Below, in pieces: positions 8,581-50,068 of a DNA stretch of 64,000 nt; the stretch's first letter is position 1; the number at the start of each line of letters is the position of its first letter. The stretch is from Deltaproteobacteria bacterium. Its GTDB lineage: Bacteria > Myxococcota_A > Polyangia > Polyangiales > JADZFZ01. The position numbers and the translations under genes are program-made. The stretch lies in assembly GCA_020854145.1 (NCBI GenBank), contig JADZFZ010001118.1, positions 14,067-78,066 of the forward strand, read 5' to 3'. A model generated the notes under the pieces. It saw only the letters and a program-made list of their open reading frames with translations. It did no database searches and was not told the origin of the DNA.

Positions 8581-9005
8581 CGGATGCGTCTCTCTTCCTC
8601 GGCCGGCGCGGCCGGTCGGTCCTCGTCTCGTGCCAGTTCGGTCGCCGAGACGCGCGCCGCTGCGGCGACCTCGACCCACGCCTCGGCGCGCCGCTCCCAG
8701 CGACGACGGCCGCCCTCGGCCGTGAGCACCACCGCGCCCAGGCCCGCGGCGTCCGCTGCAGCGATCCCCGCCCGTGCGCCGGCCTCGGCACCCCGGTCGT
8801 ACAGGTCGCGCGCGGTGACGGCGACCTCGCGCGCACCGGGCGACACGGCGGTCGGCGACACGTCGCCGTGATCGAGCACGACGACGGTCTCGCCGCGCTG
8901 CCGTGCCGCACGCCACGCCGAGGCGATGGTCTCGACCTCGGCGCGCACGTCGGACTCTGCCGAGTCGATGCCGCCCGCGTGGCGTCGCTCTACACGGAAC
9001 CGCAT
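8577..9005 (-). CDS. Hypothetical protein (142 aa), possible fibre assembly factor
   Basis: ATG 9005 overlaps the stop of the large fibre gene (ATGA). Only the last 142 codons of the 317-aa track ORF look protein-like. Confidence 0.45.
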   Translation of the reverse strand: MRFRVERRHAGGIDSAESDVRAEVETIASAWRAARQRGETVVVLDHGDVSPTAVSPGAREVAVTARDLYDRGAEAGARAGIAAADAAGLGAVVLTAEGGRRRWERRAEAWVEVAAAARVSATELARDEDRPAAPAEEERRIR

Positions 9006-12000
9006 CAGACGCTCTCTTTCAGCGCGATGTCTCCCAGCATGTATCGGGTCACGGTGTCGACCTCGGCCTGCGTGAGCTCCGACGTGTAGACGACCGCGTC
9101 GGAGATGTCGGCGCCGCCGTACGCGTAGCCCGCGTGCGACATCGACACGCCGACGCAGAATCGGCCGTTCGTCACCCCGTCGGGCAGCGTGAGCGCGCCC
9201 GACGTCCCCATCAGCACACCGTCGCGGTAGACCTTGACCACGCCCCCGCTGGAACGGGTGAACCCGAGCACGAAGCCCCTGCCAACGGCCTGGCAAAGCT
9301 CCGTCGTCTCGAATCGCCGCTGTGTCGGGCCCGCGCCCGAATACCACTCGACGATCACGCTCGCCGAGTAGCCGAACATCATGCGCCAAGCGGTGTTGTT
9401 CGCGCCGCCGGCCGCGTCGCTCGCACCACACTCCATGAGCACGCGATTGACCTGGTCGACCGTCGCGCGAACATCGGTGATCGGATTCACCCGGCAGAAC
9501 GCGGACATCGCGCCCGTGAGCTGGGCCCACCCCGAGTTACCCGACGTGAGCTGTAGGCCGTCGCCGTATGCGGTGACGAGCGTGCGCCACGCGCGTTTGC
9601 TCGGCGTCGGGCCCTGGCAGTAGCGATTCGTCGCGCCGCCCGCGAGCGCCAAGGTCGTGCGGCCCGAGCCCGACGAGTCCGCCAGGGAATTGTCGAGCGA
9701 ATAGAGGGCCGTCGGCGTAGGGGACGACAGCGGCGGTGAACGAGGTAGCAGGGCGTCGGCGTGCAGCGGGCACACGAACGCCCAGATCGTCGTGTTGCTC
9801 GACGCCGCGCCGAGGGCGATCCCCAGCGGCGCCCCACGGAGCGTGGCCGATCCGGTGAGGCCCCACGCATTCGCCGCCGTCGTGCTCGTGATAAGCGTGT
9901 CGCCGCGCGCGATGTTCACGTTGTCGGTCGTGCGGACGTTGACCTTGCAGACGCCGAATTGGCAGACCCAGACCGTCGCCTCGGCGGCACCCCCAATCAC
10001 CACGACGCCGAGAGGGCGCACGCCTGCGGTCGTCGTCGTCGTGCAGGCCTGGTCTGTCGCGCTCGTGTAGGGCACGACGACGTCGCCGGGATTGAGCGTG
10101 CCCCCCGACTTGTTCACGTAGGGCACGCAGATCGGGGCCGAGCGCGAAACAGCCGCGCCGAACTTCACCGCTCCCTGACGCCCCGTGCCCGTCGGAGTGC
10201 CAAGCAAGACCTCGATGTCGGATGCGTCGACGTTCCCGCCCGTGCCGGCGTTCTGCGTCTCGATCCGCACGCCACCGGCCGCCCCACCCGTGCTCGAGCC
10301 ATTGCCGCCCGCTCCGCTTTTCAGGATCGCCTGTCCGCCCGCGCCGCCCGTCGCCCCAGAGGCGCCGTTGCCGGCCACCGTCTGCCCCACGCCACCGGCG
10401 CCACCGGTGCCGGACGACGAAGCGCCGCCGGCACCACCCAGGACGCTCGCTTGACCGCCGATGCCCCCCGTGCCGGCGCCCGACGTGGCGCCTCCGGCGC
10501 CACCATTCACGGCGCCCGAGGCGCCAGCACCACCGGCGCCCGACGATGTGTTAGCCCCCCCCGGTCCGGCGGTGACAGCCGCGGTGCCGCCCGTGCCGGC
10601 GGTCTGCGAGGTGTTGGACGCACCCCCGTTGCCGCCAAAGTAGGAGACCGAACCCCCGTTGCCTCCGGACGCCGAGGCGCCAGCGGCGCCACCGGTGCCG
10701 CCGCTGACAATGAGCACTCCGCCCTGCCGACCGGCCTGCGTACCGGCCGCTGCGGCGCCATCGCCGCCGACCCACGTCAGTCCCCCGCCGATGCCGCCTG
10801 CTCGGTTATTGCCAGCGTCCCCCGCGCCCCCGGCTCCCTGCGTGACGACGATCCCGCCCCCGGCGCCACCACTTTGGGCCGAACTCGCCGCGCCTCCGAT
10901 GCCGGTCACGATCGCCAATTGACCGCCCGCGCCCCCCGCTGCGCCCGCGGTCGCCGCTCCCCCCGCGCTGGTCGTGAGGGTCAGCGGCGCACCGGCCGTC
11001 GCTGCCGCTCCCGCCCCGCCCGTCAGAGCGACCGCGGCGAGGCTCGAGACAACCAGCGCGGCAGTGCCCGACGGGCTCACACGCAGCAGATCGCCCGTCG
11101 CACCGGCCGACGACTCGATCTCGACGGCGCGTCCGGTCGTCGTCGCGCCCATCGACACATAGAGGGCGCGACCCGCGCCGGCGAACGTGCGATAGAGCTG
11201 CAGCAGATCGGTCGCGTCTGCGCTGTTGCGGAGGATGATGGCGCCGTCGGCTGACGTGATCGGCACGTCGTTGTCGCCGCCGTCCTCGTAGACCGATTGC
11301 AGCGACGGGGCGGCCGCGCCCGCTCCGCTCGTGCCCGCGATGCGCGTCCACGCGGTAGACGGGCTGTCGGCGCTCTTGACCCACAGTCGCCCCTGGCGAT
11401 CGAGCGCGAGGGATCCCGCGTTGGGGCCAGCGATCCCGTTCGGGTCGCCGTCCACGATCATCACGTCGACGGAACCCGTCACGAGCGACGCGGGATTGAT
11501 GCGGTAGCCGATCCCGTAGTTGCCGCCCTGCGCCGGGTCGACCATCGCGGGCACGGCCTGATAGACCGCCGGGCGTGCAGTGCCCGCAGCCGTCGCCGTC
11601 ACCGCGGGCGCCGTCGCCGTCGCGAGCGAGCTACCACCGACCGAGAGGAGCGAGAGCGCGTCGCTCGCGGCCGTGTAGGCGCTGTCGTTGATCTCGACCG
11701 GCCCGTCGGCGTCGGTCGCCGCGATTACTTCGCCAGCGTCGTAGGCGGTCTGCAGCGTAGCGCCGCCGCTGTCGACGCGATTCCAGACCGTCGACGGGCT
11801 GTCGCCAGCCTTGATGTAGAGCCGCTTGTTCGTGAGGTCGGCGGCGAGCGAGCCTGCGGTCGCAGCGGCAAGCTGCCCGTTCGGGTCGCCCTCGACGAGG
11901 ATGAGCGACCACGGCACCACCGCGCTCGCGGGCGACACCGAGAGCACCGTCGCGACGTCGCGCGTGCCCTCCGTGCCTCCGGGCGGGATGAGCGAGAGCG

Positions 12001-13024
12001 CGTCCGACTGCACCTGGACGAGCGTCGTCGCAGAGCTACCGGCGATGATCTGCCGAGCCGTCGACGCTCCGAGGTAGATGCGGCCCGCGAGCCCGGAGCC
12101 GCTCTTCGCGCCTGCGTCGAGCGTGAGATCCGCGCCAGCGGTGTTGCCCGTGCCACCCGCGCCCGCCGTGATCGCCACGGGCTCGCCAGGGAGTCCCGCA
12201 CCGCCCGTGCCGCCGACGAGCGTGATCTGCCCGTCGGTGTCGATGTCGAGCACGTTGACCGCGCCAATCGTCACGCGCGGCCGGTGCTCGTGGTCGGCCC
12301 GTGCGGGCCCGGTCGCTGCGCCTGCGGCCGATGCGCCCGCGCCGAGCTGCGCGGGCGACGCGGGAGCTGCGACCGAGTGTGTGTGATCGGCGCGCGCGAA
12401 CGATGTCGAGGCGCCCTCCGCGGCGCTGTCCCCGATCAGGATCGCGCCCGCCGCCGCTGCCGCAATCGCGTGCCGGTGATCGACGCGCGAGGCCTCGGCG
12501 CTGACGCCGGCGCTCGCCGTGGCGTCCGGCTCGATCGTGACCGGCAGGGTCGCGCCGACCGAGGCGCCGCCCGCCGCGCCGGTGATCGTGACGTCGACCT
12601 CACCGCCAGCCCCGTCGTCGGCCACCGTGAGCGTGATGTTGGCTCCCTCGATGAGGTTCAGCCGTCGACGCGTTCCGACGTCCGCCCCGTTCTTCCGCAC
12701 CGTGAGGCCGAGCCAGTCGACCGTGATGTCGACTTCGTTGTCGGCGGGGTCGTCGACGACCGTGAAGTCGATCCCGGAGCCCTCGATCAGATTCAGCCGC
12801 GGGCGCGACCCGACGTTCGCGCCTCCATTGACGCGGATCGCGACGGTCGAGCTGCCCCCGATGATGGCCGCCTGCAGCTCGAGGATCGCCGTGACGACGT
12901 TGTTCCAGACGTACGCCGGCACCTCATAATCAGGCGACGGCACCCCGCGACCCGGCGCGTTTTGCTTGATGCGCCCGAGCCCCTTCGCGAGGTCGTCGCT
13001 CCGCTCCCATTGTCCGAGCGTCAT
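9005..13024 (-). CDS. Large tail fibre (1339 aa) with Gly-rich central block and C-terminal LamG domain
   Basis: Repeated N-terminal fibre modules (RPRLNLIEGSGIDFTV / RRRLNLIEGANITLTV) and DH-x-H motifs (SRVDHRHA, ARADHTHS, ARADHEHR). Gly/Ala-rich ~260 aa. LamG-like C-terminus (AFCRVNP...KVYRDGVLMG...AVVYTSELTQAEV). Confidence 0.85.
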   Translation of the reverse strand: MTLGQWERSDDLAKGLGRIKQNAPGRGVPSPDYEVPAYVWNNVVTAILELQAAIIGGSSTVAIRVNGGANVGSRPRLNLIEGSGIDFTVVDDPADNEVDITVDWLGLTVRKNGADVGTRRRLNLIEGANITLTVADDGAGGEVDVTITGAAGGASVGATLPVTIEPDATASAGVSAEASRVDHRHAIAAAAAGAILIGDSAAEGASTSFARADHTHSVAAPASPAQLGAGASAAGAATGPARADHEHRPRVTIGAVNVLDIDTDGQITLVGGTGGAGLPGEPVAITAGAGGTGNTAGADLTLDAGAKSGSGLAGRIYLGASTARQIIAGSSATTLVQVQSDALSLIPPGGTEGTRDVATVLSVSPASAVVPWSLILVEGDPNGQLAAATAGSLAADLTNKRLYIKAGDSPSTVWNRVDSGGATLQTAYDAGEVIAATDADGPVEINDSAYTAASDALSLLSVGGSSLATATAPAVTATAAGTARPAVYQAVPAMVDPAQGGNYGIGYRINPASLVTGSVDVMIVDGDPNGIAGPNAGSLALDRQGRLWVKSADSPSTAWTRIAGTSGAGAAAPSLQSVYEDGGDNDVPITSADGAIILRNSADATDLLQLYRTFAGAGRALYVSMGATTTGRAVEIESSAGATGDLLRVSPSGTAALVVSSLAAVALTGGAGAAATAGAPLTLTTSAGGAATAGAAGGAGGQLAIVTGIGGAASSAQSGGAGGGIVVTQGAGGAGDAGNNRAGGIGGGLTWVGGDGAAAAGTQAGRQGGVLIVSGGTGGAAGASASGGNGGSVSYFGGNGGASNTSQTAGTGGTAAVTAGPGGANTSSGAGGAGASGAVNGGAGGATSGAGTGGIGGQASVLGGAGGASSSGTGGAGGVGQTVAGNGASGATGGAGGQAILKSGAGGNGSSTGGAAGGVRIETQNAGTGGNVDASDIEVLLGTPTGTGRQGAVKFGAAVSRSAPICVPYVNKSGGTLNPGDVVVPYTSATDQACTTTTTAGVRPLGVVVIGGAAEATVWVCQFGVCKVNVRTTDNVNIARGDTLITSTTAANAWGLTGSATLRGAPLGIALGAASSNTTIWAFVCPLHADALLPRSPPLSSPTPTALYSLDNSLADSSGSGRTTLALAGGATNRYCQGPTPSKRAWRTLVTAYGDGLQLTSGNSGWAQLTGAMSAFCRVNPITDVRATVDQVNRVLMECGASDAAGGANNTAWRMMFGYSASVIVEWYSGAGPTQRRFETTELCQAVGRGFVLGFTRSSGGVVKVYRDGVLMGTSGALTLPDGVTNGRFCVGVSMSHAGYAYGGADISDAVVYTSELTQAEVDTVTRYMLGDIALKESV

Positions 13025-40656: not shown

Positions 40657-40878
40657 TCAGCTCGCGGCTCGCTGCTCGACGGCCTCTGCAGGCTCGCAGA
40701 GCTCGGCGATGCTGACCGCCCCCCCGGTGGCTTCCGAGATTCGCTTGGCGGTCGCGTACTCGCCGATCAGCTCGCCGCGGCGGGCCCGCATCAGCGTCGT
40801 GTAACCGACGCCGGTGTCCCGCTGGATCCGGGTCATTACGCCGTGGCCCTGACTGTCCACCCACTCCGGAAAGCGCAT
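40657..40878 (-). CDS. Cro-like HTH regulator (YdaS/Cro family)
   Basis: 73 aa. Translation VMTRIQRDTGVGYTTLMRARRG...ISEATGGAVSIAEL. Divergent from the cI-like gene. Confidence 0.7.
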   Translation of the reverse strand: MRFPEWVDSQGHGVMTRIQRDTGVGYTTLMRARRGELIGEYATAKRISEATGGAVSIAELCEPAEAVEQRAAS

Positions 40879-40906
40879 CTCTCACCTACCGCAAGCGGTC
40901 TACCGA

Positions 40907-40947
40907 ATAGGGTCCACCGTGTCAAGCATTGCTGAGATAGACCCTAT
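40907..40947. promoter_or_regulatory. Candidate operator: inverted repeat ATAGGGTC (40907..40914) / GACCCTAT (40940..40947) in the cro/cI divergent region
   Basis: Read directly from the sequence. A third related half-site, ATGGGGTC, follows at 40946..40953. Confidence 0.4.
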
Positions 40948-41548
40948 GGGGTCGATTGCTCGCGGTCGGCCGCCTTGGGATGGTGCCCTCGTGGGTCGCT
41001 CCGACGTTGACCAGGCTCGCGGTGTTCGGCTGCGCGACGCGCGGGAAGCCGCCGGCAAGACCATTGCCCAAGCTGCCGATGCGATCGGAGCCCGGTGGCA
41101 CACGGTCAAGCGGTACGAGCAGGGAATGGCACCGTCGCCCGAGCGCCTGGTGTTGCTGGCGCAGTTCTACGGCACGACCGCCGAGCGCCTAATGGGTCAG
41201 GACGGCGCAGCGGGTGCGCCGGCAGTCGCCCACGTCGAGGCCGAGCTCCCGGTGATTTTCGCAGCGTTCTACGCATCACCCATCGGGGCCGACACGACCG
41301 ACGAGGAAAAGCAGCGACTGCAAGATCGGCGGTGGCGCGAAGGTCTCGAGCTCACACTCGAGGACCTCTTCTCGTTCCGCACGATGATCCGGAACGCGAA
41401 GAAACGCGGGCTCCCTCCCCTCACCGAGCAGGAGCAGGAGCTCGAGCGCACCCGCATCGCGAAGGGCCGCCCCCGCAACGTGCTCGTCGGCGACGGGAAG
41501 TCACCGCCGCCGCCCCGACCTCGCACGAAGCCCCGTCCCAAACGCTGA
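40919..41548 (+). CDS. cI-like repressor, XRE-family HTH (start uncertain)
   Basis: Translation GVRLRDAREAAGKTIAQAADAIGARWHTVKRYEQGMAPSPERLVLLAQFYGTTAERLMG. Basic C-terminal tail. Confidence 0.75.
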   Translation: MSSIAEIDPMGSIARGRPPWDGALVGRSDVDQARGVRLRDAREAAGKTIAQAADAIGARWHTVKRYEQGMAPSPERLVLLAQFYGTTAERLMGQDGAAGAPAVAHVEAELPVIFAAFYASPIGADTTDEEKQRLQDRRWREGLELTLEDLFSFRTMIRNAKKRGLPPLTEQEQELERTRIAKGRPRNVLVGDGKSPPPPRPRTKPRPKR

Positions 41549-41552
41549 CCGC

Positions 41553-41840
41553 TTGCAGCACGCCCCACGCGCGGGCCATGCTGCCAGGGTGACCACCGCC
41601 GCCGAGCGAGTCCGCGCCGAGACGATGCTCTTCAGAGCCGCGCTCCCTGGTCTGTTGACGACGCACGCCGGCAAGTGGGTCGTGTTCCGCGACGGACACA
41701 TCCAGAGCGTCCACGACGACGAAGGCGATGCCTACAGCGCTGGCATCGATGCGTTCGGTGTCGATGGCGGCTTCGTCGTGGCACCTGTCGTGCCGATCAA
41801 GCCGACTCTCATGACGGCTGCGCTCGCCTTCGGTCGGTGA
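41553..41840 (+). CDS. DUF5678-like small protein (start may be GTG 41589 or ATG 41625)
   Basis: Translation HAGKWVVFRDGHIQSVHDDEGDAYSAGIDAFG. Its stop overlaps the start of the protease gene. Confidence 0.55.
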   Translation: MQHAPRAGHAARVTTAAERVRAETMLFRAALPGLLTTHAGKWVVFRDGHIQSVHDDEGDAYSAGIDAFGVDGGFVVAPVVPIKPTLMTAALAFGR

Positions 41841-42385
41841 CTCGAATCGCGCACTGGGGCGCCGTCAACGATCCTCCCCACGGGCTCGTCGCGATCGGGC
41901 CGCTCGTCAACGTCAGGCTGGTGGCGCATCCCAAACATCGCGCTTCGGTGCCCGACGTCGGCCCGGTCCGCCTGATGATCGACACAGGCGCACAGCGCAC
42001 CCTCGTCGACGACGCGTTGTGCGTGAAACTCGGGCTGCCACCGATTCGGTTCGACGAGATCGTTGGTGTCTCTGGCAAACCCGAGAGCTGGCCTGTGTAT
42101 CTGTTGGGCGTTCGTCTCGGTCTGAGCTCCCATCCCAAGGCGCAGGAGAACGCGTTCGCGGTATTTGGCGCGGAAGTGATCGGCATGCCCGTCGGGCCCC
42201 ACGACCAGCACCGCGGGTTGCTGGGGCGCGATTTCCTCGCGAATTTCGAGCTCGGGTACGATGGCCCCAACGGGAGCTTCGCGATCATGGTACCGGCGAC
42301 GCGAGCCGCTGCCCTCGCGGGCCCGACCGCCACGCCAAATCGCGCAGAGCGACGACGATTGGCGCGGCAGAAGACGGGCCCCTAG
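41837..42385 (+). CDS. Retropepsin-like (clan AA) aspartic protease
   Basis: GTGA overlap start. Motifs VRLMIDTGAQRTLVD (D-T-G-A) and GLLGRDFLANFEL, typical of bacterial retropepsin-like domains. Confidence 0.7.
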   Translation: MTRIAHWGAVNDPPHGLVAIGPLVNVRLVAHPKHRASVPDVGPVRLMIDTGAQRTLVDDALCVKLGLPPIRFDEIVGVSGKPESWPVYLLGVRLGLSSHPKAQENAFAVFGAEVIGMPVGPHDQHRGLLGRDFLANFELGYDGPNGSFAIMVPATRAAALAGPTATPNRAERRRLARQKTGP

Positions 42386-42428
42386 GGGACGGCTTGACCG
42401 AACGGCCGCCTCCTGGCTCGATCGGGCG

Positions 42429-43142
42429 GTGCGCCATCGGGGGACCCGCGGACATCTCGCGACCGACGAGGCGCACCTCGAGGCGATCGCCGAGCGCTGG
42501 CGCGCCGAGACCCACTGCGAGCCTCCGGTCTCCGGTGCCGAGGAGCTCTGGATCGCCGGCGTGCGCGTGATCCCCGACGCGGCGCGGGCCGCTGGGCGCG
42601 CCTGCCTCGACGGCGGCGTCGTCTACTACCACCCGGGATGGCCCCCCGACGTCGTCAACTTCGCTCTGCTCCACGAGCTCGGCCACCTGCTCGCCCAGCG
42701 CGATCGCTGCGACGGCGAGGCGGCTGCCAGCTACGTCGCGGCCGCCCTTGCGATGCCCCGTGCGCAGGTCCTCCGCGTCGTGCGTCGGGTCGGGCGCGAC
42801 ATCCCAATGGTCCGCTGGGCCTTCGGTGACTCCGTTAGCCACGAGGTCGTCGGACGCCGGCTCGTGGACGTGTACCCCGAGCTCGTGCTGTCCGTGTGGC
42901 CGGAGGGACGACTCCTGGTCCGCTACGAGCGCGGCATCGCGGCACCGCTGTCGGTGACCGAGCGGGACGCCGTTGCACAGGGCGTGACGGCCGGCGAGCC
43001 CGGTTGGCGCGACGACATCGGCGCCGGAGCGTGGGTCGTCGAGGAGCGACGCGGGCGCGTCACCTACGTCCTCGTCGACCGCGAGCAGCTCGACTCACGC
43101 GGGGCGCGCGCTGCATACGACGAGGCCGTCGGCGAGGGCTAG
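42429..43142 (+). CDS. ImmA/IrrE-family zinc metallopeptidase (start approximate)
   Basis: HEXXH in FALLHELGHLLAQ. The in-frame GTG at 42429 is chosen because the track ORF start (42261) overlaps the protease gene. Confidence 0.7.
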   Translation: MRHRGTRGHLATDEAHLEAIAERWRAETHCEPPVSGAEELWIAGVRVIPDAARAAGRACLDGGVVYYHPGWPPDVVNFALLHELGHLLAQRDRCDGEAAASYVAAALAMPRAQVLRVVRRVGRDIPMVRWAFGDSVSHEVVGRRLVDVYPELVLSVWPEGRLLVRYERGIAAPLSVTERDAVAQGVTAGEPGWRDDIGAGAWVVEERRGRVTYVLVDREQLDSRGARAAYDEAVGEG

Positions 43143-43429
43143 CGATAGACGGCCGGCGCCCGGCTGCTGCGTTCGAAGGTGTTGCACGCGCCCATCCCGC
43201 ACGCCGTGCACGAGCCCATCACGAGACCCGCCATCGCGAACACGGGGATCAGCTTGAAGGCTAGACCGATGCTGGACCCGAAGCTGATGTCCACGTCCGT
43301 CACGGTGACCTTCACGACGTTGTTCGAGTCACGCGGAACGGCGAGATCGACCACGGGCGGGCCGACCGGTGGAGGCGCAGACGGGCGCGGTGGCTGGTCT
43401 CCGAAACCCTGGCGATCCCCCGTTTCCAT
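43139..43429 (-). CDS. Small membrane protein (96 aa), antisense to the flanking operons
   Basis: ATG 43429. C-terminal TM region IGLAFKLIPVFAMAGLVMGSCTACGMGAC. Only the tail of the 333-aa track ORF is protein-like. Confidence 0.5.
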   Translation of the reverse strand: METGDRQGFGDQPPRPSAPPPVGPPVVDLAVPRDSNNVVKVTVTDVDISFGSSIGLAFKLIPVFAMAGLVMGSCTACGMGACNTFERSSRAPAVYR

Positions 43430-44035: not shown

Positions 44036-45771
44036 ACGCGCTCGCGCCCCCGGAGACGGCGGTGGCTGGAGCGACGACGACGCCATTGCCAACCTCATCG
44101 GTGGCGTCGTCAACGAAGCCCTCGACGAGCTCGTCATCACCGGGCGAGTACATCGAGCGCTTCCCTCTCAAGCGCCTGCGCGAGAGCGCGACGAACCCGC
44201 GACGCATCTTCGGCAAGCTCGACGAGCTCGCCGTCAGCATCAAGCGACACGGCGTGCTCGAGCCGCTGCTCGTGCGCCCGGTGCCGGGCAAGCCCGACAC
44301 CGAGATCGTCGCAGGACACCGGCGGTTCCGCGCGGCCACCATCGCCGGCGTCGAGCACGTGCGCGTCATCCTGCGCGAGCTCTCCGACTCCGACGCTCTC
44401 GAGATCCAGCTCATCGAGAACGTGCAGCGCGAGGACCTCCACGAGCTCGACGAGGCCGACGGCTACGCGCAGCTCATCGAGCGGTGCGGCTACACGCCGG
44501 CGACGCTCGCCGAGAAGGTCGGCGTCTCGAAGGCGACGATCCACGCGCGCCTCAAGCTGCGCTCTCTCGGGCAAGCGTGTCGTGACGCATGGCTGAACGG
44601 CGAGCTCGACGCGAGCCGTGCGCTGTACCTCGCGCGCATCCCGACGCAGGCGTTGCAGGAGCAGGCGCTCGAAGAGATCACCAAGGGCACTTTCAACGAT
44701 GGCCCAATGAGCGCGCGCGAGGCGCAAGCTCACATCGCGCACCACTACACCATCGCGCTCGATGAGCGCGCTCGCTTCGACACTGCAGACGAAACGCTGG
44801 ATCCCGTCGCTGGGCCCTGCATCACGTGCCCGAAGCTGTCGGGGAACGCGCGCGACCTGTTCCCCGAGATCCAGCGTGCAGACGTCTGCACGGACCCCGA
44901 GTGCTTCAAGGGCAAGAGCCAAGCGCACTGGAATCGCACCGCCGAGAAGGCGGCCAGGACCGGGTTGCGCGTGCTGAGTGCGAAGGAAGCCAAGAACGCG
45001 ATCGACCCATATGGCCCCACCGGACGCCCCAAGGAGACCTCGGGATATGCCGCCCTCGACCAACAGGCCCCGTGGGTCATCGGCAGAGGCAAGACCTGGA
45101 AGCAGCTGCTCGGGAAGAAGGCCCCCGCTCCGACTGTGATCGCGAGAGACCCTCGCACCGGCGACGCCGTGCAGCTCATCGAACGCAACAGACTCGAGGC
45201 GGTCGCTAAGGAGCACGGCATCGGTCAACCGACCGAAGAAGAGCGGCGAGCGCGAGACGAGGCCAAGGCCAACCTAGAGCGCGCGAACAAGAAGGCTGAG
45301 GCCGACCAGCGAGCACAGCGCGACGTTGCGCTCGCCCTGGTCGCTGCGGCAGAGGCGGGGGGCGGCGAGCAGCTCTGGCCGCTGGTCGCGGCACACCTGA
45401 TCACGATCGAGCGCGAGGGCTACTCCGACAACCTCGACGAGACCGAGATGGCGCAGCGGCGAGGCCTCGACGGCGCGGAAGACGCCTCTGCGCTGCTGCG
45501 TGCTCTGCCGACGATGAAGTCGGCCATCGCGCGTGGGGTCGCCGTCGAGGTCCTCGCGCTCACTGACTACACGGGCGCGATGCGGAGCGAGCTCTGCAAG
45601 CTGCTGGGCGTCGACCCCAAGCGGCCCAAGACGCCAGCGAAGAAGTCGACGGCGAAGGCCGCCAAGAAGACGCCAGCGAAGAAGTCGACGGCGAAGGCCG
45701 CCAAGAAGACGCCAGCGAAGAAGTCGACGGCGAAGGCCGCCAAGAAGACGCCAGCGAAGAAGGGCCGCTGA
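44032..45771 (+). CDS. ParB/Spo0J-like protein with Cys cluster and Lys/Ala-rich repeat tail
   Basis: ParB N-domain (LEPLLVRP...IVAGHRRFRAA; IENVQREDL), HTH (ATLAEKVGVSKATIHARLKL), Cys cluster PCITCP...CTDPECF, and TPAKKSTAKAAKK x3.5. Confidence 0.85.
   Translation: MNALAPPETAVAGATTTPLPTSSVASSTKPSTSSSSPGEYIERFPLKRLRESATNPRRIFGKLDELAVSIKRHGVLEPLLVRPVPGKPDTEIVAGHRRFRAATIAGVEHVRVILRELSDSDALEIQLIENVQREDLHELDEADGYAQLIERCGYTPATLAEKVGVSKATIHARLKLRSLGQACRDAWLNGELDASRALYLARIPTQALQEQALEEITKGTFNDGPMSAREAQAHIAHHYTIALDERARFDTADETLDPVAGPCITCPKLSGNARDLFPEIQRADVCTDPECFKGKSQAHWNRTAEKAARTGLRVLSAKEAKNAIDPYGPTGRPKETSGYAALDQQAPWVIGRGKTWKQLLGKKAPAPTVIARDPRTGDAVQLIERNRLEAVAKEHGIGQPTEEERRARDEAKANLERANKKAEADQRAQRDVALALVAAAEAGGGEQLWPLVAAHLITIEREGYSDNLDETEMAQRRGLDGAEDASALLRALPTMKSAIARGVAVEVLALTDYTGAMRSELCKLLGVDPKRPKTPAKKSTAKAAKKTPAKKSTAKAAKKTPAKKSTAKAAKKTPAKKGR
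44875..44892. repeat. Palindrome copy 4: CGTGCAGACGTCTGCACG (inside the ParB-like gene)
   Basis: Perfect 18-bp palindrome. Translated RADVCT and overlaps the CTDPECF Cys motif. Confidence 0.95.
45631..45765. repeat. 39-bp perfect tandem repeat x3.5 (encodes the TPAKKSTAKAAKK tail of the ParB-like protein)
   Basis: Units at 45631..45669, 45670..45708 and 45709..45747, plus a partial copy. Confidence 0.95.
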
Positions 45772-45772
45772 C

Positions 45773-46345
45773 GTGGGCGCAGCGGCCGCTCCGCGCGTCC
45801 CGCTCGTGCGGGCGCGCACCATCGCCGAGCAGCTCGTGCGCATCCTCGCGCCGGCCTGCGAGCGCATCGTCATCGCCGGCGCGATCCGTCGGCGCAAGCT
45901 CGAGGTCGCCGACATCGACATCGTCGCGCTGCCGAGGGTCCGACGCGACCTCGCGGGCCTCGTGCTCGACGACGATCTCGAGCCGCTCGTGACGCGGCTC
46001 CGAGCAGCCGGCACGCTGCGATGGCGACGCCGAGGCGACGGCGGCTACATGGCGACGGGCCCTCGCCGCTATGCCCTCGTGCACGAGGACAGCTGGATCC
46101 CGATTGACCTGTTCAGCGTCCGCCCGCCCGCGCAGTGGGGGGCAATCCTGGCAATTCGCACCGGCCCCGCGGAGTACTCCCAGGCGCTCGTAGTCGGCGC
46201 ACGCAAGCGGGGCCTCCGGTGCGAAGACGGCCGGCTCATCCGGAACGACGACAGTGTCCCTCCCGTCGAGCGTGCGACGCCGGAGGAACGCGACTTCATT
46301 GCAGCCTGCGGATTCCCGTGGGCCGACCCCGAATGGAGGCGATGA
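45773..46345 (+). CDS. Pol X (DNA polymerase beta)-like nucleotidyltransferase, minimal palm/thumb
   Basis: Motifs RIVIAGAIRRRKLEVADIDIVAL (GS-x-RRG-x-x-x-x-D-x-D pattern) and IPIDLFSV...RTGPAEYSQALVVGARKRGL. Confidence 0.7.
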   Translation: MGAAAAPRVPLVRARTIAEQLVRILAPACERIVIAGAIRRRKLEVADIDIVALPRVRRDLAGLVLDDDLEPLVTRLRAAGTLRWRRRGDGGYMATGPRRYALVHEDSWIPIDLFSVRPPAQWGAILAIRTGPAEYSQALVVGARKRGLRCEDGRLIRNDDSVPPVERATPEERDFIAACGFPWADPEWRR

Positions 46346-46602: not shown

Positions 46603-46831
46603 GCGGCGCAAGCGCCGACGATTGCACGTCGTCGAGCACGGCACGATTCGCATCCGGGCCTATCCCGTCATCGAGCGCGCCGTGAATGAGGGCCTCTCCG
46701 CTGGCTGGCGTCGGGCGCACAAGCACACGGACACACCAACCGTCGAGGCGATCCTCGAGCAGCTCGAGCGCGACGTGCTCGCGTGCCTCGACGGAGTCGT
46801 CGCCTTCGATCCGCACGAGCCCGCACCGTGA
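46595..46831 (+). CDS. Small hypothetical protein (78 aa)
   Basis: ATG 46595, in frame with the track ORF 46382..46831. Only the last 78 codons are protein-like. Confidence 0.45.
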   Translation: MGKRRKRRRLHVVEHGTIRIRAYPVIERAVNEGLSAGWRRAHKHTDTPTVEAILEQLERDVLACLDGVVAFDPHEPAP

Positions 46832-47241
46832 CGCGCCAGCTCCCGGCCATCCTCGTGGAGCCCGACGTGCTCGATCACCTCGAGGAGAAAGTTGTCGTCG
46901 TCTCACGTCGAGCACGGCCACATCCGAGCGGCACACGGGTCGTCTACATCGGACGACCCAGCGCGCTCGGCAATCCCTACCGCATCGCCCCCGGATACGA
47001 CGTCGCGCGGGATCCCGACGATGTCCTCGGGCGGTACGCCCGATGGCTCGAGCGGCAGCTCGACACGGACACGGCGGCGAGGCGCGCCATCCTCGAGATC
47101 ATCGCGGCCGTCTGTATCGGCGAGACGATCGCCCTCGAGTGCTGGTGCGCTCCGGCGCGATGCCACGGCGACGTCGTACGCAGCCTGGTGCTCGACACCA
47201 TTCGAGGCGCGATGCACGACGTGCTCGCGCTCGAGCAATGA
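46828..47241 (+). CDS. DUF4326-domain protein
   Basis: Translation VVYIGRPSALGNPYRI...LGRYARWL...ALECWCAPARCHGDVV. GTGA overlap start. Confidence 0.7.
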   Translation: MTRQLPAILVEPDVLDHLEEKVVVVSRRARPHPSGTRVVYIGRPSALGNPYRIAPGYDVARDPDDVLGRYARWLERQLDTDTAARRAILEIIAAVCIGETIALECWCAPARCHGDVVRSLVLDTIRGAMHDVLALEQ

Positions 47242-47711
47242 CCGCCGACCTCCCGCGGTGGCTCACGGCCGACGAGGTCGCGACGATGTTGCACTACCGG
47301 TCGCGCGCCGGCGTGCACATGGCCGTGAGGCGCGGCGAGCTCGTCGGCTATCGCCGCGGCCGCCGCGTGCTGTTCCTGCTCGAGGACGTCGATCGTATGC
47401 TCCGGGGCCGTCCGGTCGTGCGCCCCAGAGGAGAGGACTCCAATGGGCACCACGACGAAACCGAACCGACGAATCGCACCGGGTCTCTGGCAATTGGATA
47501 CGGAGAGGTGGCTCATTCGCGTCAAGGCGCGGAGCCGCAAGACGGGGAGAATCGGGGAGCGCCTCGAGCAGTTTCGGGGGACGCGAGCGGAGGCGATTGC
47601 CACGCGCGAGCAGTGGCGACTCGAGCTCGTCGGCGACGTCGTCCAGCGCGAGAGGCAGACGCTCGAAGCTGTCGCGAAATCGTGGCTGCAGCTCAAGATC
47701 GCACGCGGTGA
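47238..47711 (+). CDS. xis: Excisionase-like HTH protein; ORF tail overlaps int out of frame
   Basis: Translation WLTADEVATMLHYRSRAGVHMAVRRGELVGYRRGRRVLFLLEDVDRML. No stop until 47711, 269 nt into int. Confidence 0.6.
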   Translation: MTADLPRWLTADEVATMLHYRSRAGVHMAVRRGELVGYRRGRRVLFLLEDVDRMLRGRPVVRPRGEDSNGHHDETEPTNRTGSLAIGYGEVAHSRQGAEPQDGENRGAPRAVSGDASGGDCHARAVATRARRRRRPAREADARSCREIVAAAQDRTR

Positions 47712-48606
47712 TCTCGCGACGAGCACCGCCGACCGATACGCGCGCGCTCTCGACGATCACATCCTGCCCGCCCTCGGTGACGTCTTCCTCGAGGAGCTCA
47801 CGCGTGCGGATGTCGATCGATGGCTCGCCGGCGTCGGCCAGGAGCCGAGCACGTGCAATGGGTACCTGCGAGTACTTCGCTCCGTGCTCGAGGGCGCCGT
47901 CGCCGACGAGCTCGTGCCCGCAAACGTCGCGACGCGCGTCGCACCGCTGAAGGAACGCACGCGCGACGAGCCGAACGCGCTCACGGCCGACGAGCTCCGG
48001 CGCGTGCTCGAGCACTGGCGCGCGACGCGGCCGGAGCAGTATCCGCTCGTGCTCGCGCTCGCGCTCACGGGAGCGCGGTGGGGCGAGATCACGGCGCTGC
48101 GATGGAGCGACATCGACGCCGCGGCCGCGGAAGGCGCGCTGACGATCCGTCGCGCCCACCATCGCGGAGAGGTGAAGGAACCGAAGACGGGCGTGCGGCG
48201 CATCGTGCCCTTCCCTCGCGTGCTCGCGCGCGTCCTCGAGGAGCACCGCAAGCGGTGCCTCCGGGAGCAGCGACCGGGCTTCGAGGACGGTTGGGTGTTC
48301 ACCTCGAGCGAGGGGACGCTCCTCGACAATGGTCGATTGTCGAAGCCCTGGCGCGAGGTCCTCGGCGAGCTCGAGATCGCGAAGCGAGTCACCATGCACG
48401 GGCTCCGACACACGATGACCGACCTGCTGCGGCACGCGCGCGTCGACCAGGTGACCTCGGCCGCTCTCATCGGCCACACCACCGAGCAAATGCGGCGACG
48501 CTACTCCACCGTTCTGCCCGCCGAGGCGCGCGCTGCCGGCGACCAGGTCGTGAGAATGGCCGGGCTCGCGGGTGGGAGAATCGGTGGGAGCCGGCGACGG
48601 AAATGA
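47443..48606 (+). CDS. int: Tyrosine integrase
   Basis: GGAGAGGA RBS. Motifs ALALTGARWGEITALRWSDID, HGLRHTMTDLL and IGHTTEQMRRRY (R..HxxR..Y). Confidence 0.9.
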   Translation: MGTTTKPNRRIAPGLWQLDTERWLIRVKARSRKTGRIGERLEQFRGTRAEAIATREQWRLELVGDVVQRERQTLEAVAKSWLQLKIARGDLATSTADRYARALDDHILPALGDVFLEELTRADVDRWLAGVGQEPSTCNGYLRVLRSVLEGAVADELVPANVATRVAPLKERTRDEPNALTADELRRVLEHWRATRPEQYPLVLALALTGARWGEITALRWSDIDAAAAEGALTIRRAHHRGEVKEPKTGVRRIVPFPRVLARVLEEHRKRCLREQRPGFEDGWVFTSSEGTLLDNGRLSKPWREVLGELEIAKRVTMHGLRHTMTDLLRHARVDQVTSAALIGHTTEQMRRRYSTVLPAEARAAGDQVVRMAGLAGGRIGGSRRRK

Positions 48607-48610
48607 AAAA

Positions 48611-48648
48611 GGCCCCCGAGACCCTAATGGTCTCGGAGGCCTACTTTT
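48611..48648 (+). terminator. Intrinsic terminator-like hairpin (A-run upstream, T-run downstream: possibly bidirectional)
   Basis: aaaaa-GGCCCCCGAGACC-ctaat-GGTCTCGGAGGCC-tactttt, immediately after the int stop. Confidence 0.6.
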
Positions 48649-48666
48649 CCGGGGCGATCACGCCGG

Positions 48667-48732
48667 AGCGGGAGAAGGGATTTGAACCCTCGACTTCAAC
48701 CTTGGCAAGGTTGAGCCCGTTTCCACTGAGCA
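48667..48732 (-). pseudogene. tRNA-Gly(GCC) remnant lacking the 5' acceptor strand (att-site fragment)
   Basis: Minus strand reads D arm GCTC-AGTGGAAAC-GGGC, anticodon arm CAACC-TTGCCAA-GGTTG, T arm GAGGG-TTCAAAT-CCCTT and 3' acceptor CTCCCGC-T. The 7 nt 5' of the D arm (TGTAGAA) cannot pair. Confidence 0.7.
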
Positions 48733-48751
48733 CTTCTACACATTCTTGAAA

Positions 48752-50068
48752 TCACTTCGCTTCTTGAGCCATGTCGTGCCGGCGCGCCTCGGCGTCTTCG
48801 CCTCGGTGGACACCGGAGTGGACACCTCCGGGGATGAGCCGCAGCGCTTGCTCGCCTGCGGCGCGAGCTTCGTCGGGCCGCACCTTCGAGTACCGCCTCT
48901 GCATCGCGTCGCTCTCGTGCCCGACGATGGACTGTCGGATGAACGAGTCGACTCCCGCCTGCCGCAGCAGGTCGACCATCGTGTGCCGCAGTCCGTGGAA
49001 CGTGACGCGCCGCTCGATGCCCACGGCCTTCAGGACGTCACGCCACTCCTTTGACAGGCTCCCGTTGACGAGCAGCGTGCCTTTCTCCGTCGTGAAGAGG
49101 TAACCCGCCGCGATGCCGGGATGCTCGACGGCAACCATCCACCGCCGGTACTCGCGGAACAGCTCGGAGAGCGCGTGGGGCCATGGAACCGAGCGCCGCC
49201 GCCGCCCCTTGGTGCCCTTGAGCTGACCTCGATAGTGCGCGCGCCGAACCAAGAGCGCCCCCTCTCGCTCCGCCTTGTCGAGATCGGCAGGTTGCAGCGC
49301 GGTGACCTCCCCCCACCGCATACCGGTGACGGCCGCGGCAAGCACTATCAGGAAGCCCTGCACCTTGAGATCACGGCGGTGCCGCCCGTGGAATCGAGGG
49401 TGGAGGTACTCCGGCGCGTCGGGCCACACGAGAGCGCATCGCCGTCGCCACTCCTCGATGATCGCACCCAGCTCCTCGGGCTCGAACGTGTTGTCGCCGT
49501 CGTCGGGGTGCTCGTCCTCGGGGATCGGCTTGACCAGGGCGGCCACGTTGCGGGCGATGAGTTTGTCGCCCACGGCGTCGTTCAGCAGGCTTACCAGCAC
49601 CCGCAGCCAGCCGTTGCACGACGTGGCTTGCCATCGCTCTGCTTCTGCCTTGAACCACGCCACCACGTCGGCCTTCTCGAGCCTGGCTAGGATCATCTGC
49701 CCGAGCGCCGGCCTAATCTGTCCGTCGAGCCCGACCGTGTTCAGGATGTGCTGGTCCAACGCGGTGGTGTAGCGGTCCACCGTGCTCGGCGACCATCTTC
49801 GAAGTGCGAGCCCGGTGCTCATCCACGACCGCGCGAATGACTCCACGGTTTCGCGGCTCTGTACTTTCACCGGCTCGTTTGCCGCCAGTTCGGCCCGCAC
49901 CTTCTCGCGTTCGATCAGCGCCTCCGCCTTCGTTCCGTCGAACTGCTGCCACCGGCTTCCGACGAGGCCGGTCTTCGAGCTGCGCGCCTTCACGCGAAAC
50001 TCGAACTTGTCCTTCTCCAATTGCCAAAGACCCGGCGCTACGCGCCTCTTCTTGCTTGTGCGTGCCAT
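48752..50068 (-). CDS. int: Tyrosine integrase (paralogue of 47443..48606)
   Basis: N-terminus RRVAPGLWQLEKDKFEFRVKARSSKTG versus RRIAPGLWQLDTERWLIRVKARSRKTG in int1. Motifs HGLRHTMVDLL and VGHESDAMQRRY. Confidence 0.9.
   Translation of the reverse strand: MARTSKKRRVAPGLWQLEKDKFEFRVKARSSKTGLVGSRWQQFDGTKAEALIEREKVRAELAANEPVKVQSRETVESFARSWMSTGLALRRWSPSTVDRYTTALDQHILNTVGLDGQIRPALGQMILARLEKADVVAWFKAEAERWQATSCNGWLRVLVSLLNDAVGDKLIARNVAALVKPIPEDEHPDDGDNTFEPEELGAIIEEWRRRCALVWPDAPEYLHPRFHGRHRRDLKVQGFLIVLAAAVTGMRWGEVTALQPADLDKAEREGALLVRRAHYRGQLKGTKGRRRRSVPWPHALSELFREYRRWMVAVEHPGIAAGYLFTTEKGTLLVNGSLSKEWRDVLKAVGIERRVTFHGLRHTMVDLLRQAGVDSFIRQSIVGHESDAMQRRYSKVRPDEARAAGEQALRLIPGGVHSGVHRGEDAEARRHDMAQEAK

Follow-up and report, generated by a model that had tools for sequence, protein, structure and literature searches.

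A DUF5678-like/retropepsin gene pair as probable cargo between the repressor and the M78 peptidase of a Myxococcota prophage

This work concerns four co-oriented genes at positions 40919-43142 of a 64,000-nucleotide stretch of DNA from a Deltaproteobacteria bacterium (assembly GCA_020854145.1, contig JADZFZ010001118.1, positions 14,067 to 78,066). The whole stretch, referred to below as the window, is about 70% GC and belongs to a Myxococcota-type metagenome-assembled genome. Proteins encoded in it match those of a 'Deltaproteobacteria bacterium' metagenome-assembled genome with 99-100% identity. The four genes code for an XRE-family repressor, a small acidic DUF5678-like protein, a retropepsin-like aspartic protease and an ImmA/IrrE-type metallopeptidase (hereafter M78), and they form the lysogeny arm of a temperate prophage. 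The three genes that follow the repressor do not appear to be one system. Comparison with related loci indicates that the small gene and the protease gene stand apart from the switch made of the repressor and M78; they very likely constitute an autonomous, horizontally mobile two-gene cassette carried as cargo in a variable slot.

Genes at the repressor locus

The main features, in window coordinates, are as follows.

40919..41548, plus strand: XRE-family repressor (HTH_31, E=7e-10; HTH_3, E=3e-8)
41549..42428, plus strand: variable cargo slot, from the repressor stop to the M78 start, here holding the small gene and the protease gene
41589..41840, plus strand: DUF5678-like small acidic protein, 83 amino acids, isoelectric point (pI) 5.8; upstream partner gene of the protease
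41837..42385, plus strand: retropepsin-like clan AA aspartic protease, 182 amino acids, pI 9.9; DTGA at 41981-41992, GLLGRDFL at 42215-42238
42429..43142, plus strand: ImmA/IrrE-type metallopeptidase (Peptidase_M78, COG2856), 237 amino acids; HELGH at 42672-42686

A preliminary description of the locus had reported co-oriented genes downstream of an XRE repressor, and this holds: all of the open reading frames (ORFs) exist, and the four frames are backed by GC content at the third and the other codon positions. A scan found no terminator-like site between the four genes. No promoter was found in a sigma-70 consensus scan, the sigma-70 consensus being a poor guide for this organism. The NCBI locus tags are IT379_39555 for the small gene and IT379_39565 for M78.

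The small gene had at first been placed at 41553..41840 and called DUF5678-like, and both parts of this description need adjustment. The TTG codon at 41553 is probably too early and the gene probably starts at GTG 41589, since this start is backed by alignments of homologues and by the gene calls of both NCBI and Logan. The label appears valid at the level of the family only: 41 of 56 homologues match DUF5678 (PF18929) at E<=10 (best E=3.1e-6, mostly below threshold), whereas the window protein gives no match even at E<=10; the precomputed Pfam field is empty in all 58 small-protein homologues. At E<=1e-3 the family comprises 1066 representative clusters, and at the stricter E<=1e-10 it still has 288. 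The AlphaFold2 (AF2) model of the small protein, with a predicted local distance difference test score (pLDDT) of 80, consists of a helix (residues 4-26), a β-hairpin (30-42), a second helix (45-56) and a strand (63-66), followed by a low-confidence C-terminal tail (residues 67-83). The sequence of this tail is kept across the family alignment (consensus PTPITAA..FG), and conservation combined with low model confidence is the pattern expected of a segment that becomes ordered only on a partner. Ten candidates for a fusion of the small protein with the protease were picked among longer representatives, and all ten are without a protease domain. A distant family member of 158 amino acids with a coiled-coil C-terminal extension (L046:1576-2052 and L047) lies within a run of short overlapping genes that includes no protease and represents a different architecture of the DUF5678-like domain.

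The protease gene starts with a GTG codon located within a GTGA overlap with the stop codon of the small gene. The assignment to the retropepsin-like enzymes, made earlier from motifs, is upheld by hidden Markov model (HMM) searches, in which the protein scores above the cut-offs of two Pfam models (Asp_protease_2, 31.4 bits with a cut-off of 24.3; gag-asp_proteas, 29.5 bits with a cut-off of 28.2), and 22 of 23 homologues match Pfam models of the retropepsin type. The DTGA motif (D49-T50-G51-A52), whose conservation had been singled out as a check, is invariant in the 23 homologues and is present in one copy per chain; residues G127, G130, R131, D132, F133 and L134 of the second motif are equally invariant. 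The start of the 182-residue protein appears right and the 145-residue NCBI call too short, because the N-terminal residues are conserved. The C-terminal tail is basic. In the PDB, profile matches to Ddi1 and ApRick are weak (E=0.02-0.3) and limited to the DTG region. Searches of IMG/VR, of the GenBank phage collection and of the PLSDB plasmids brought up no protease relatives.

The repressor has a helix-turn-helix (HTH) domain at residues 35-92 followed by a C-terminal domain of about 110 amino acids. It matches PHROG repressor and regulator families, and capH and RmrA match its N-terminal part. The true start of the gene is probably later than 40919, at GTG 40991 or ATG 40946, as judged from the frame plot and from a 192-residue homologue at locus L043, a sister prophage described below.

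The earlier reading of the last gene as ImmA/IrrE-type, and of the repressor and this gene as an ImmR/ImmA-like pair, is also retained. The match to Peptidase_M78 is borderline (21.7 bits with a cut-off of 22), PF06114 is precomputed for two of the three homologues (P0215 and P0217), and the HELGH motif together with a downstream E...A..A..L.MP motif is invariant among the homologues. In an alignment of four sequences the residues H82, E83, H86 and E97 and the A..A.(M/I)PR motif do not vary, and the region around the motif can be aligned with the M78-like part of Mycobacterium tuberculosis PrpR. The protein also has a C-terminal extension of about 130 amino acids. Relatives of this peptidase are few: a large protein collection holds only three homologues, a metagenome scan with the M78 profile returned just two distant relatives, and none was found in IMG/VR. 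The XRE and M78 genes lie in one operon in the window and in L043 and are directly adjacent in two other loci, L045 and L052.

A two-gene cassette in a variable slot

The small gene is located directly upstream of the protease gene in all 21 loci, the window included, that carry a protease homologue scoring above 64 bits, and all 16 close genome loci retrieved with the protease query carry it; members of a distant protease subfamily (24-30 bits) are without the small gene. The 4-nucleotide overlap of the two genes is seen again in L001, L002, L035-37, L039 and L051. Pairwise identities of the small proteins and of the proteases are correlated across 31 loci, some of them near-duplicates (r=0.87), and none of 2000 permutations in a Mantel test reached this value. 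The two proteins thus co-evolve.

The surroundings of the pair are mutually unrelated and mostly non-phage. They include the housekeeping genes TsaD, RseP and DUF465, a HigB/HigA module, giant immunoglobulin-like proteins, an integrase with an HNH gene, a methyltransferase-Mrr fusion, and a mix of CinA, FHA, kinase, type I restriction-modification (R-M) and resolvase genes. A phmmer search found no relatives of the window XRE or M78 proteins in the first 33 loci, and the M78 genes present in one of the loci (L004) are unrelated and lie on the opposite strand. The small gene is also found alone: L034:194-505 has no protease, in contrast to the otherwise comparable context of L001, and at L041:6001-6935 the small gene survives next to a downstream protease that breaks off behind the DTGA region. 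Third-position GC (GC3) of the pair is 0.79-0.80, lower than that of the M78 gene (0.88) and of most phage genes, and the same trend is seen in other loci; this weakly fits a separate ancestry of the pair.

The position of the pair in the window was compared with the corresponding position near three relatives of the M78 gene. One is L043 (a contig from Logan SRR28523965), a syntenic sister prophage which shares with the window, by blastn, the methyltransferase, the early genes, the XRE C-terminal domain (76% nucleotide identity), M78 (71%), ParB, the pol-beta-thumb gene and the integrase. The match between the two breaks off at 41488, near the XRE stop, and returns at 42438, at the M78 start. 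The slot of L043 (L043:7171-8351) holds an unrelated gene of 65 codons followed by a gene for a 326-residue ClpP-like serine protease of the SDH type (PF01972, 74 bits); this cassette has no match in PADLOC, and no relatives of the serine protease were found in IMG/VR. In L045, where the XRE C-terminal domain is conserved, just 47 bp without any gene separate the end of this domain from the M78 start, and in L052, a distant low-GC prophage, the XRE and M78 genes overlap. The window and L045 have in common the nucleotides that directly precede M78 (CTTGACC...GATCGG..GGTG), which places the insertion right after the repressor stop. The slot thus appears to exist in three states, i.e., empty (L045), with an aspartic protease cassette (the window) and with a serine protease cassette (L043). 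Presence in some related phages and absence from others at one site, with conserved sequence on either side, is expected of immunity-operon cargo (a moron) and is seen here.

The possibility that the small gene, the protease gene and M78 form a single three-gene system is rejected, as the pair occurs without XRE/M78 elsewhere and XRE-M78 occurs without the pair.

The immunity switch and the surrounding prophage

Other features of the region are the following.

40657..40878, minus strand: divergent cro-like small gene, 73 amino acids, GC3 0.86-0.88, weak matches to repressor-type PHROG families
40885..40969, no strand assigned: inverted repeat, candidate operator; 30-nucleotide arms at 40885-40914 and 40940-40969, 77% complementary
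43139..43429, minus strand: convergent small gene, 71-96 amino acids, hydrophobic C-terminus, GC3 0.89; Logan calls a 96-residue gene
48665-48739, minus strand: tRNA-Gly(GCC), between two tyrosine integrase genes at 47494-48606 (plus strand) and 48752-50020 (minus strand)

The leftward early/replication operon begins with the cro-like gene, and a 70-residue HTH_3 protein is encoded at the syntenic position of L043. The inverted repeat, with the core TAGGGTC...GACCCTA, is flanked by the start of the cro-like gene and the probable start of the XRE gene, and it overlaps the start of the longest ORF of the XRE gene; it is a candidate operator. At the other end of the rightward four-gene unit, the stop codon of the convergent gene overlaps that of M78 and marks the end of the unit.

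An XRE repressor, a divergent cro-like gene and an M78 gene together make up the typical layout of an immunity switch of the ImmR/ImmA type, as known from ICEBs1, DdrO/IrrE and CapH/CapP, except for the two extra genes in the middle. With these systems the window shares an XRE repressor co-oriented with an HEXXH-containing M78 peptidase, a divergent cro-like gene and a downstream integrase. In L045 and L052 the repressor and peptidase genes are directly adjacent, and capH and capP give weak matches. The window locus differs from such switches in that two foreign genes part the repressor from the peptidase and in that the M78 domain is divergent and carries a C-terminal extension. Cleavage of the XRE repressor by M78 upon an induction signal would be expected by analogy with ICEBs1 ImmA, Deinococcus IrrE and CapP.

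Prophage genes identified in the window include those for TerL, portal, the major head protein, a primase-polymerase and one or more integrases. The tRNA-Gly gene adjoins an integrase, and the prophage is read as integrated at this tRNA gene; the location of the tRNA between two tyrosine integrase genes (47494-50020) suggests an integration hotspot occupied by two elements. In a search for the left attachment site (attL), a repeat of the tRNA-Gly region with an exact match of 14 nucleotides or more was not found elsewhere in the window.

Several further genes of the prophage deserve mention. The ParB-like gene (44032/44101-45771) contains at its 3' end (45628-45762) a perfect 39-bp tandem repeat in 3.5 copies, which encodes a lysine- and alanine-rich PAKKSTAKAAKKT repeat tail. 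Between ParB and the integrase are located a pol-beta-thumb-like protein gene (45773-46345; PF14791, weak), which is kept in L043, and a DUF4326 protein gene (46828-47241). In the structural arm, an ORF of 1339 codons (9005-13024, minus strand) has no PHROG match at E<=1e-3 and may encode a tape-measure or tail-fibre protein from a group of phages that is poorly sampled.

Possible function of the pair and its alternatives

The best overall explanation of the pair, which we favour with modest confidence, is that it is a cargo cassette which may serve as an addiction or defence module expressed in the lysogen. The preliminary description had offered three options, and the comparative evidence (the autonomy of the pair and the variability of the slot) favours the one in which a toxin-antitoxin (TA) or abortive-infection type pair rides in the immunity operon. 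A mobile two-gene operon found in varied contexts is also what is generally seen with type II TA systems. The difference in pI between the two proteins (5.8 and 9.9), the conserved disordered tail, the orphan small genes and the similarity of the proteases to a PADLOC defence candidate protein, PDC-M08B, all point to a relationship of an inhibitor and an effector. For the functional parts of this explanation our confidence is lower: we consider the TA-like relationship of inhibitor and protease evenly poised, and an anti-phage or addiction role of the pair tentative, possible rather than probable.

The module could operate in the following way. The pair would be transcribed together with the repressor in lysogens, as expected from the common operon, the short gaps and the absence of a detectable terminator. 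The protease would be the effector and, having one DTGA per chain, would act as a homodimer. The small acidic protein, whose synthesis would be coupled to that of the protease at the GTGA overlap, would bind the protease and keep it inactive, and its disordered C-terminal tail (PTPITAA..FG) is the best candidate for a segment that occupies the substrate cleft as a pseudo-substrate. If the small protein were lost or turned over, for instance because a second phage infects the cell, the element disappears or the operon is switched off, the protease would be freed to cleave host or phage targets, and the resulting growth arrest, abortive infection or addiction would benefit the prophage.

The pair resembles known type II TA systems in that the upstream gene is small, encodes an acidic protein and shares 4 nucleotides with the downstream gene, whose product is larger and basic, and in that the pair is mobile and patchily distributed (near HigBA, integrases and R-M genes), co-evolving, endowed with a conserved disordered tail and accompanied by orphan small genes. 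It differs from them in that the small protein is without a known DNA-binding fold and the candidate toxin is a retropepsin-like protease; to our knowledge, no protease of this class has been characterized as a TA toxin or a phage-defence effector. Searches of the literature turned up only regulatory or eukaryotic examples of retropepsin-type enzymes, and for DUF5678, for retropepsin-like proteases with an antitoxin and for PDC-M08 they found nothing relevant in main texts. As to position, accessory genes expressed in the lysogen are known from immunity operons, the examples being lambda cI-rexA-rexB and the prophage-mediated defence genes that adjoin the repressor in mycobacteriophages. As in those phages, the accessory genes of the window lie in the repressor transcription unit, are absent or replaced in sister phages, are atypical in composition and would be expressed in the lysogen. 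The nature of the cargo is different: here it is an aspartic protease with a DUF5678-like partner, neither of which we know to be tied to exclusion or defence, and in the sister phage it is a serine-protease cassette.

The claim that the arrangement had not been described is fair for the exact pair, but a related retropepsin two-gene cassette is already listed as a defence candidate. This is PDC-M08, one of the 145 PADLOC PDC candidates identified through guilt-by-embedding (bioRxiv 10.1101/2024.01.29.577857). Its protein PDC-M08B matches 16 of 19 members of the protease family (best E=7e-5). PDC-M08 was discovered within BREX, DISARM or type I R-M loci and not in prophage immunity operons.

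Several observations weigh against a role of the pair in addiction or defence. The match of the window protease to PDC-M08B is weak (E=0.027), and PDC-M08A matches none of 27 members of the small-protein family. No HTH, ribbon-helix-helix, AbrB or Phd family was found in the small protein, i.e., none of the DNA-binding domains usual in type II antitoxins, and a search of the PDB gave no structural or sequence neighbour for it. The AF2 model of the protease, built from an alignment of 10 sequences, has a pLDDT of 48, so that the fold rests on HMMs and motifs. Many host contexts of the pair are plain housekeeping neighbourhoods rather than defence islands, which would suit a physiological regulatory role. 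The reconstruction of the slot is based on just three relatives of M78, and the presence of a small gene and a protease in both occupied slots (n=2) may point to a tie with the switch.

Much of this evidence is relevant to the alternatives. The pair may be regulatory and non-toxic, with a protease that performs specific processing in the manner of RimB, SpoIIGA or PerP (for example, the release of a C-terminal peptide) and a small protein that is its substrate, chaperone or adaptor; the phage would then carry the pair as a lysogenic-conversion function altering host physiology. This possibility is attractive because the known bacterial retropepsin-like enzymes are specific regulators, as is RimB (PMC11957791), because of the housekeeping neighbourhoods just mentioned, and because the conserved C-terminal tail is equally plausible as a cleavage site and as an inhibitor. 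We consider it a serious alternative but nevertheless rather unlikely, since the distribution of the pair is patchy, with integrases, HigBA and restriction genes among its neighbours, since its decay is asymmetric (the small gene outlasts the protease and the reverse is never seen), and since the pairing of an acidic with a basic protein and the similarity to PDC-M08B suit a conflict module better. The window protease shares with RimB, APRc/ApRick, SpoIIGA, PerP and Ddi1 the single-domain clan AA organization, one DTG(A) per chain and a second motif of the GxDFL type. Unlike APRc, SpoIIGA and PerP, it is without a membrane domain. It has no rimAK neighbours, and it differs from the characterized retropepsin-like proteases in having an obligate DUF5678-like partner gene and a basic C-terminal tail. 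SpoIIGA and PerP are, like RimB, specific regulators in bacteria.

The two remaining options of the preliminary description were a second induction input and a protease cascade. In such a reading the retropepsin, controlled by its small partner, would be a second protease of the switch that cuts the XRE repressor or that processes or activates M78. The pair is enclosed by the repressor and M78 genes of one operon, the gaps being short and free of terminators, which agrees with such a role, and the slot of L043 too contains a small gene and a protease, of another catalytic class, this coincidence between two occupied slots being the only hint of a second input that was found. Yet more than 20 other loci, mostly outside phages, have the pair but no relatives of the window XRE and M78, and the composition of the pair is unlike that of M78. 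In L045 and in the distant L052, XRE is followed by M78 with no second protease, and the switch thus works without one. Nothing supports a second input beyond the hint just given, nor a cascade wired to the repressor, the pair and the switch each occurring alone, and we regard both as very improbable. That the small gene or the protease gene is a chance open frame with coincidental motifs could be considered because long spurious ORFs abound on all six frames of DNA with 70% GC and because GC3 of the pair is below that of its neighbours. The probability of this is practically negligible: both proteins have many homologues with invariant motifs, Pfam matches exceed cut-offs, codon-position GC fits coding, and NCBI and Logan arrived at these genes independently. 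The wide conservation among homologues rules out a chance-ORF reading of the pair as a whole.

A more far-reaching interpretation, which we consider improbable though less so than a second switch protease, is that the position between the repressor and M78 is a dedicated slot for modules of a small protein and a protease of interchangeable catalytic class which work with the XRE/M78 circuit, and that the DUF5678-like/retropepsin pair founds a family of aspartic-protease TA or defence systems with a pseudo-substrate tail. A module of this kind would possibly act as a guard, triggered by interference of an incoming phage or an anti-repressor with the switch. If this were true, the family would be widespread, with at least 1000 clusters at 50% identity, and the locus would exemplify a protease-based conflict or switch function expressed in the lysogen.

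The comparison of these loci corrects the tempting reading of three adjacent proteolysis-related genes as one machine. As a natural experiment, the three-state slot is a clean case for learning how temperate phages insert cargo expressed in the lysogen between a repressor and its cognate peptidase. If the pair is indeed a TA or defence module, it would give a role to a part of the DUF5678-like protein space and would add to such modules a catalytic class that has so far been only hinted at by a PADLOC candidate.

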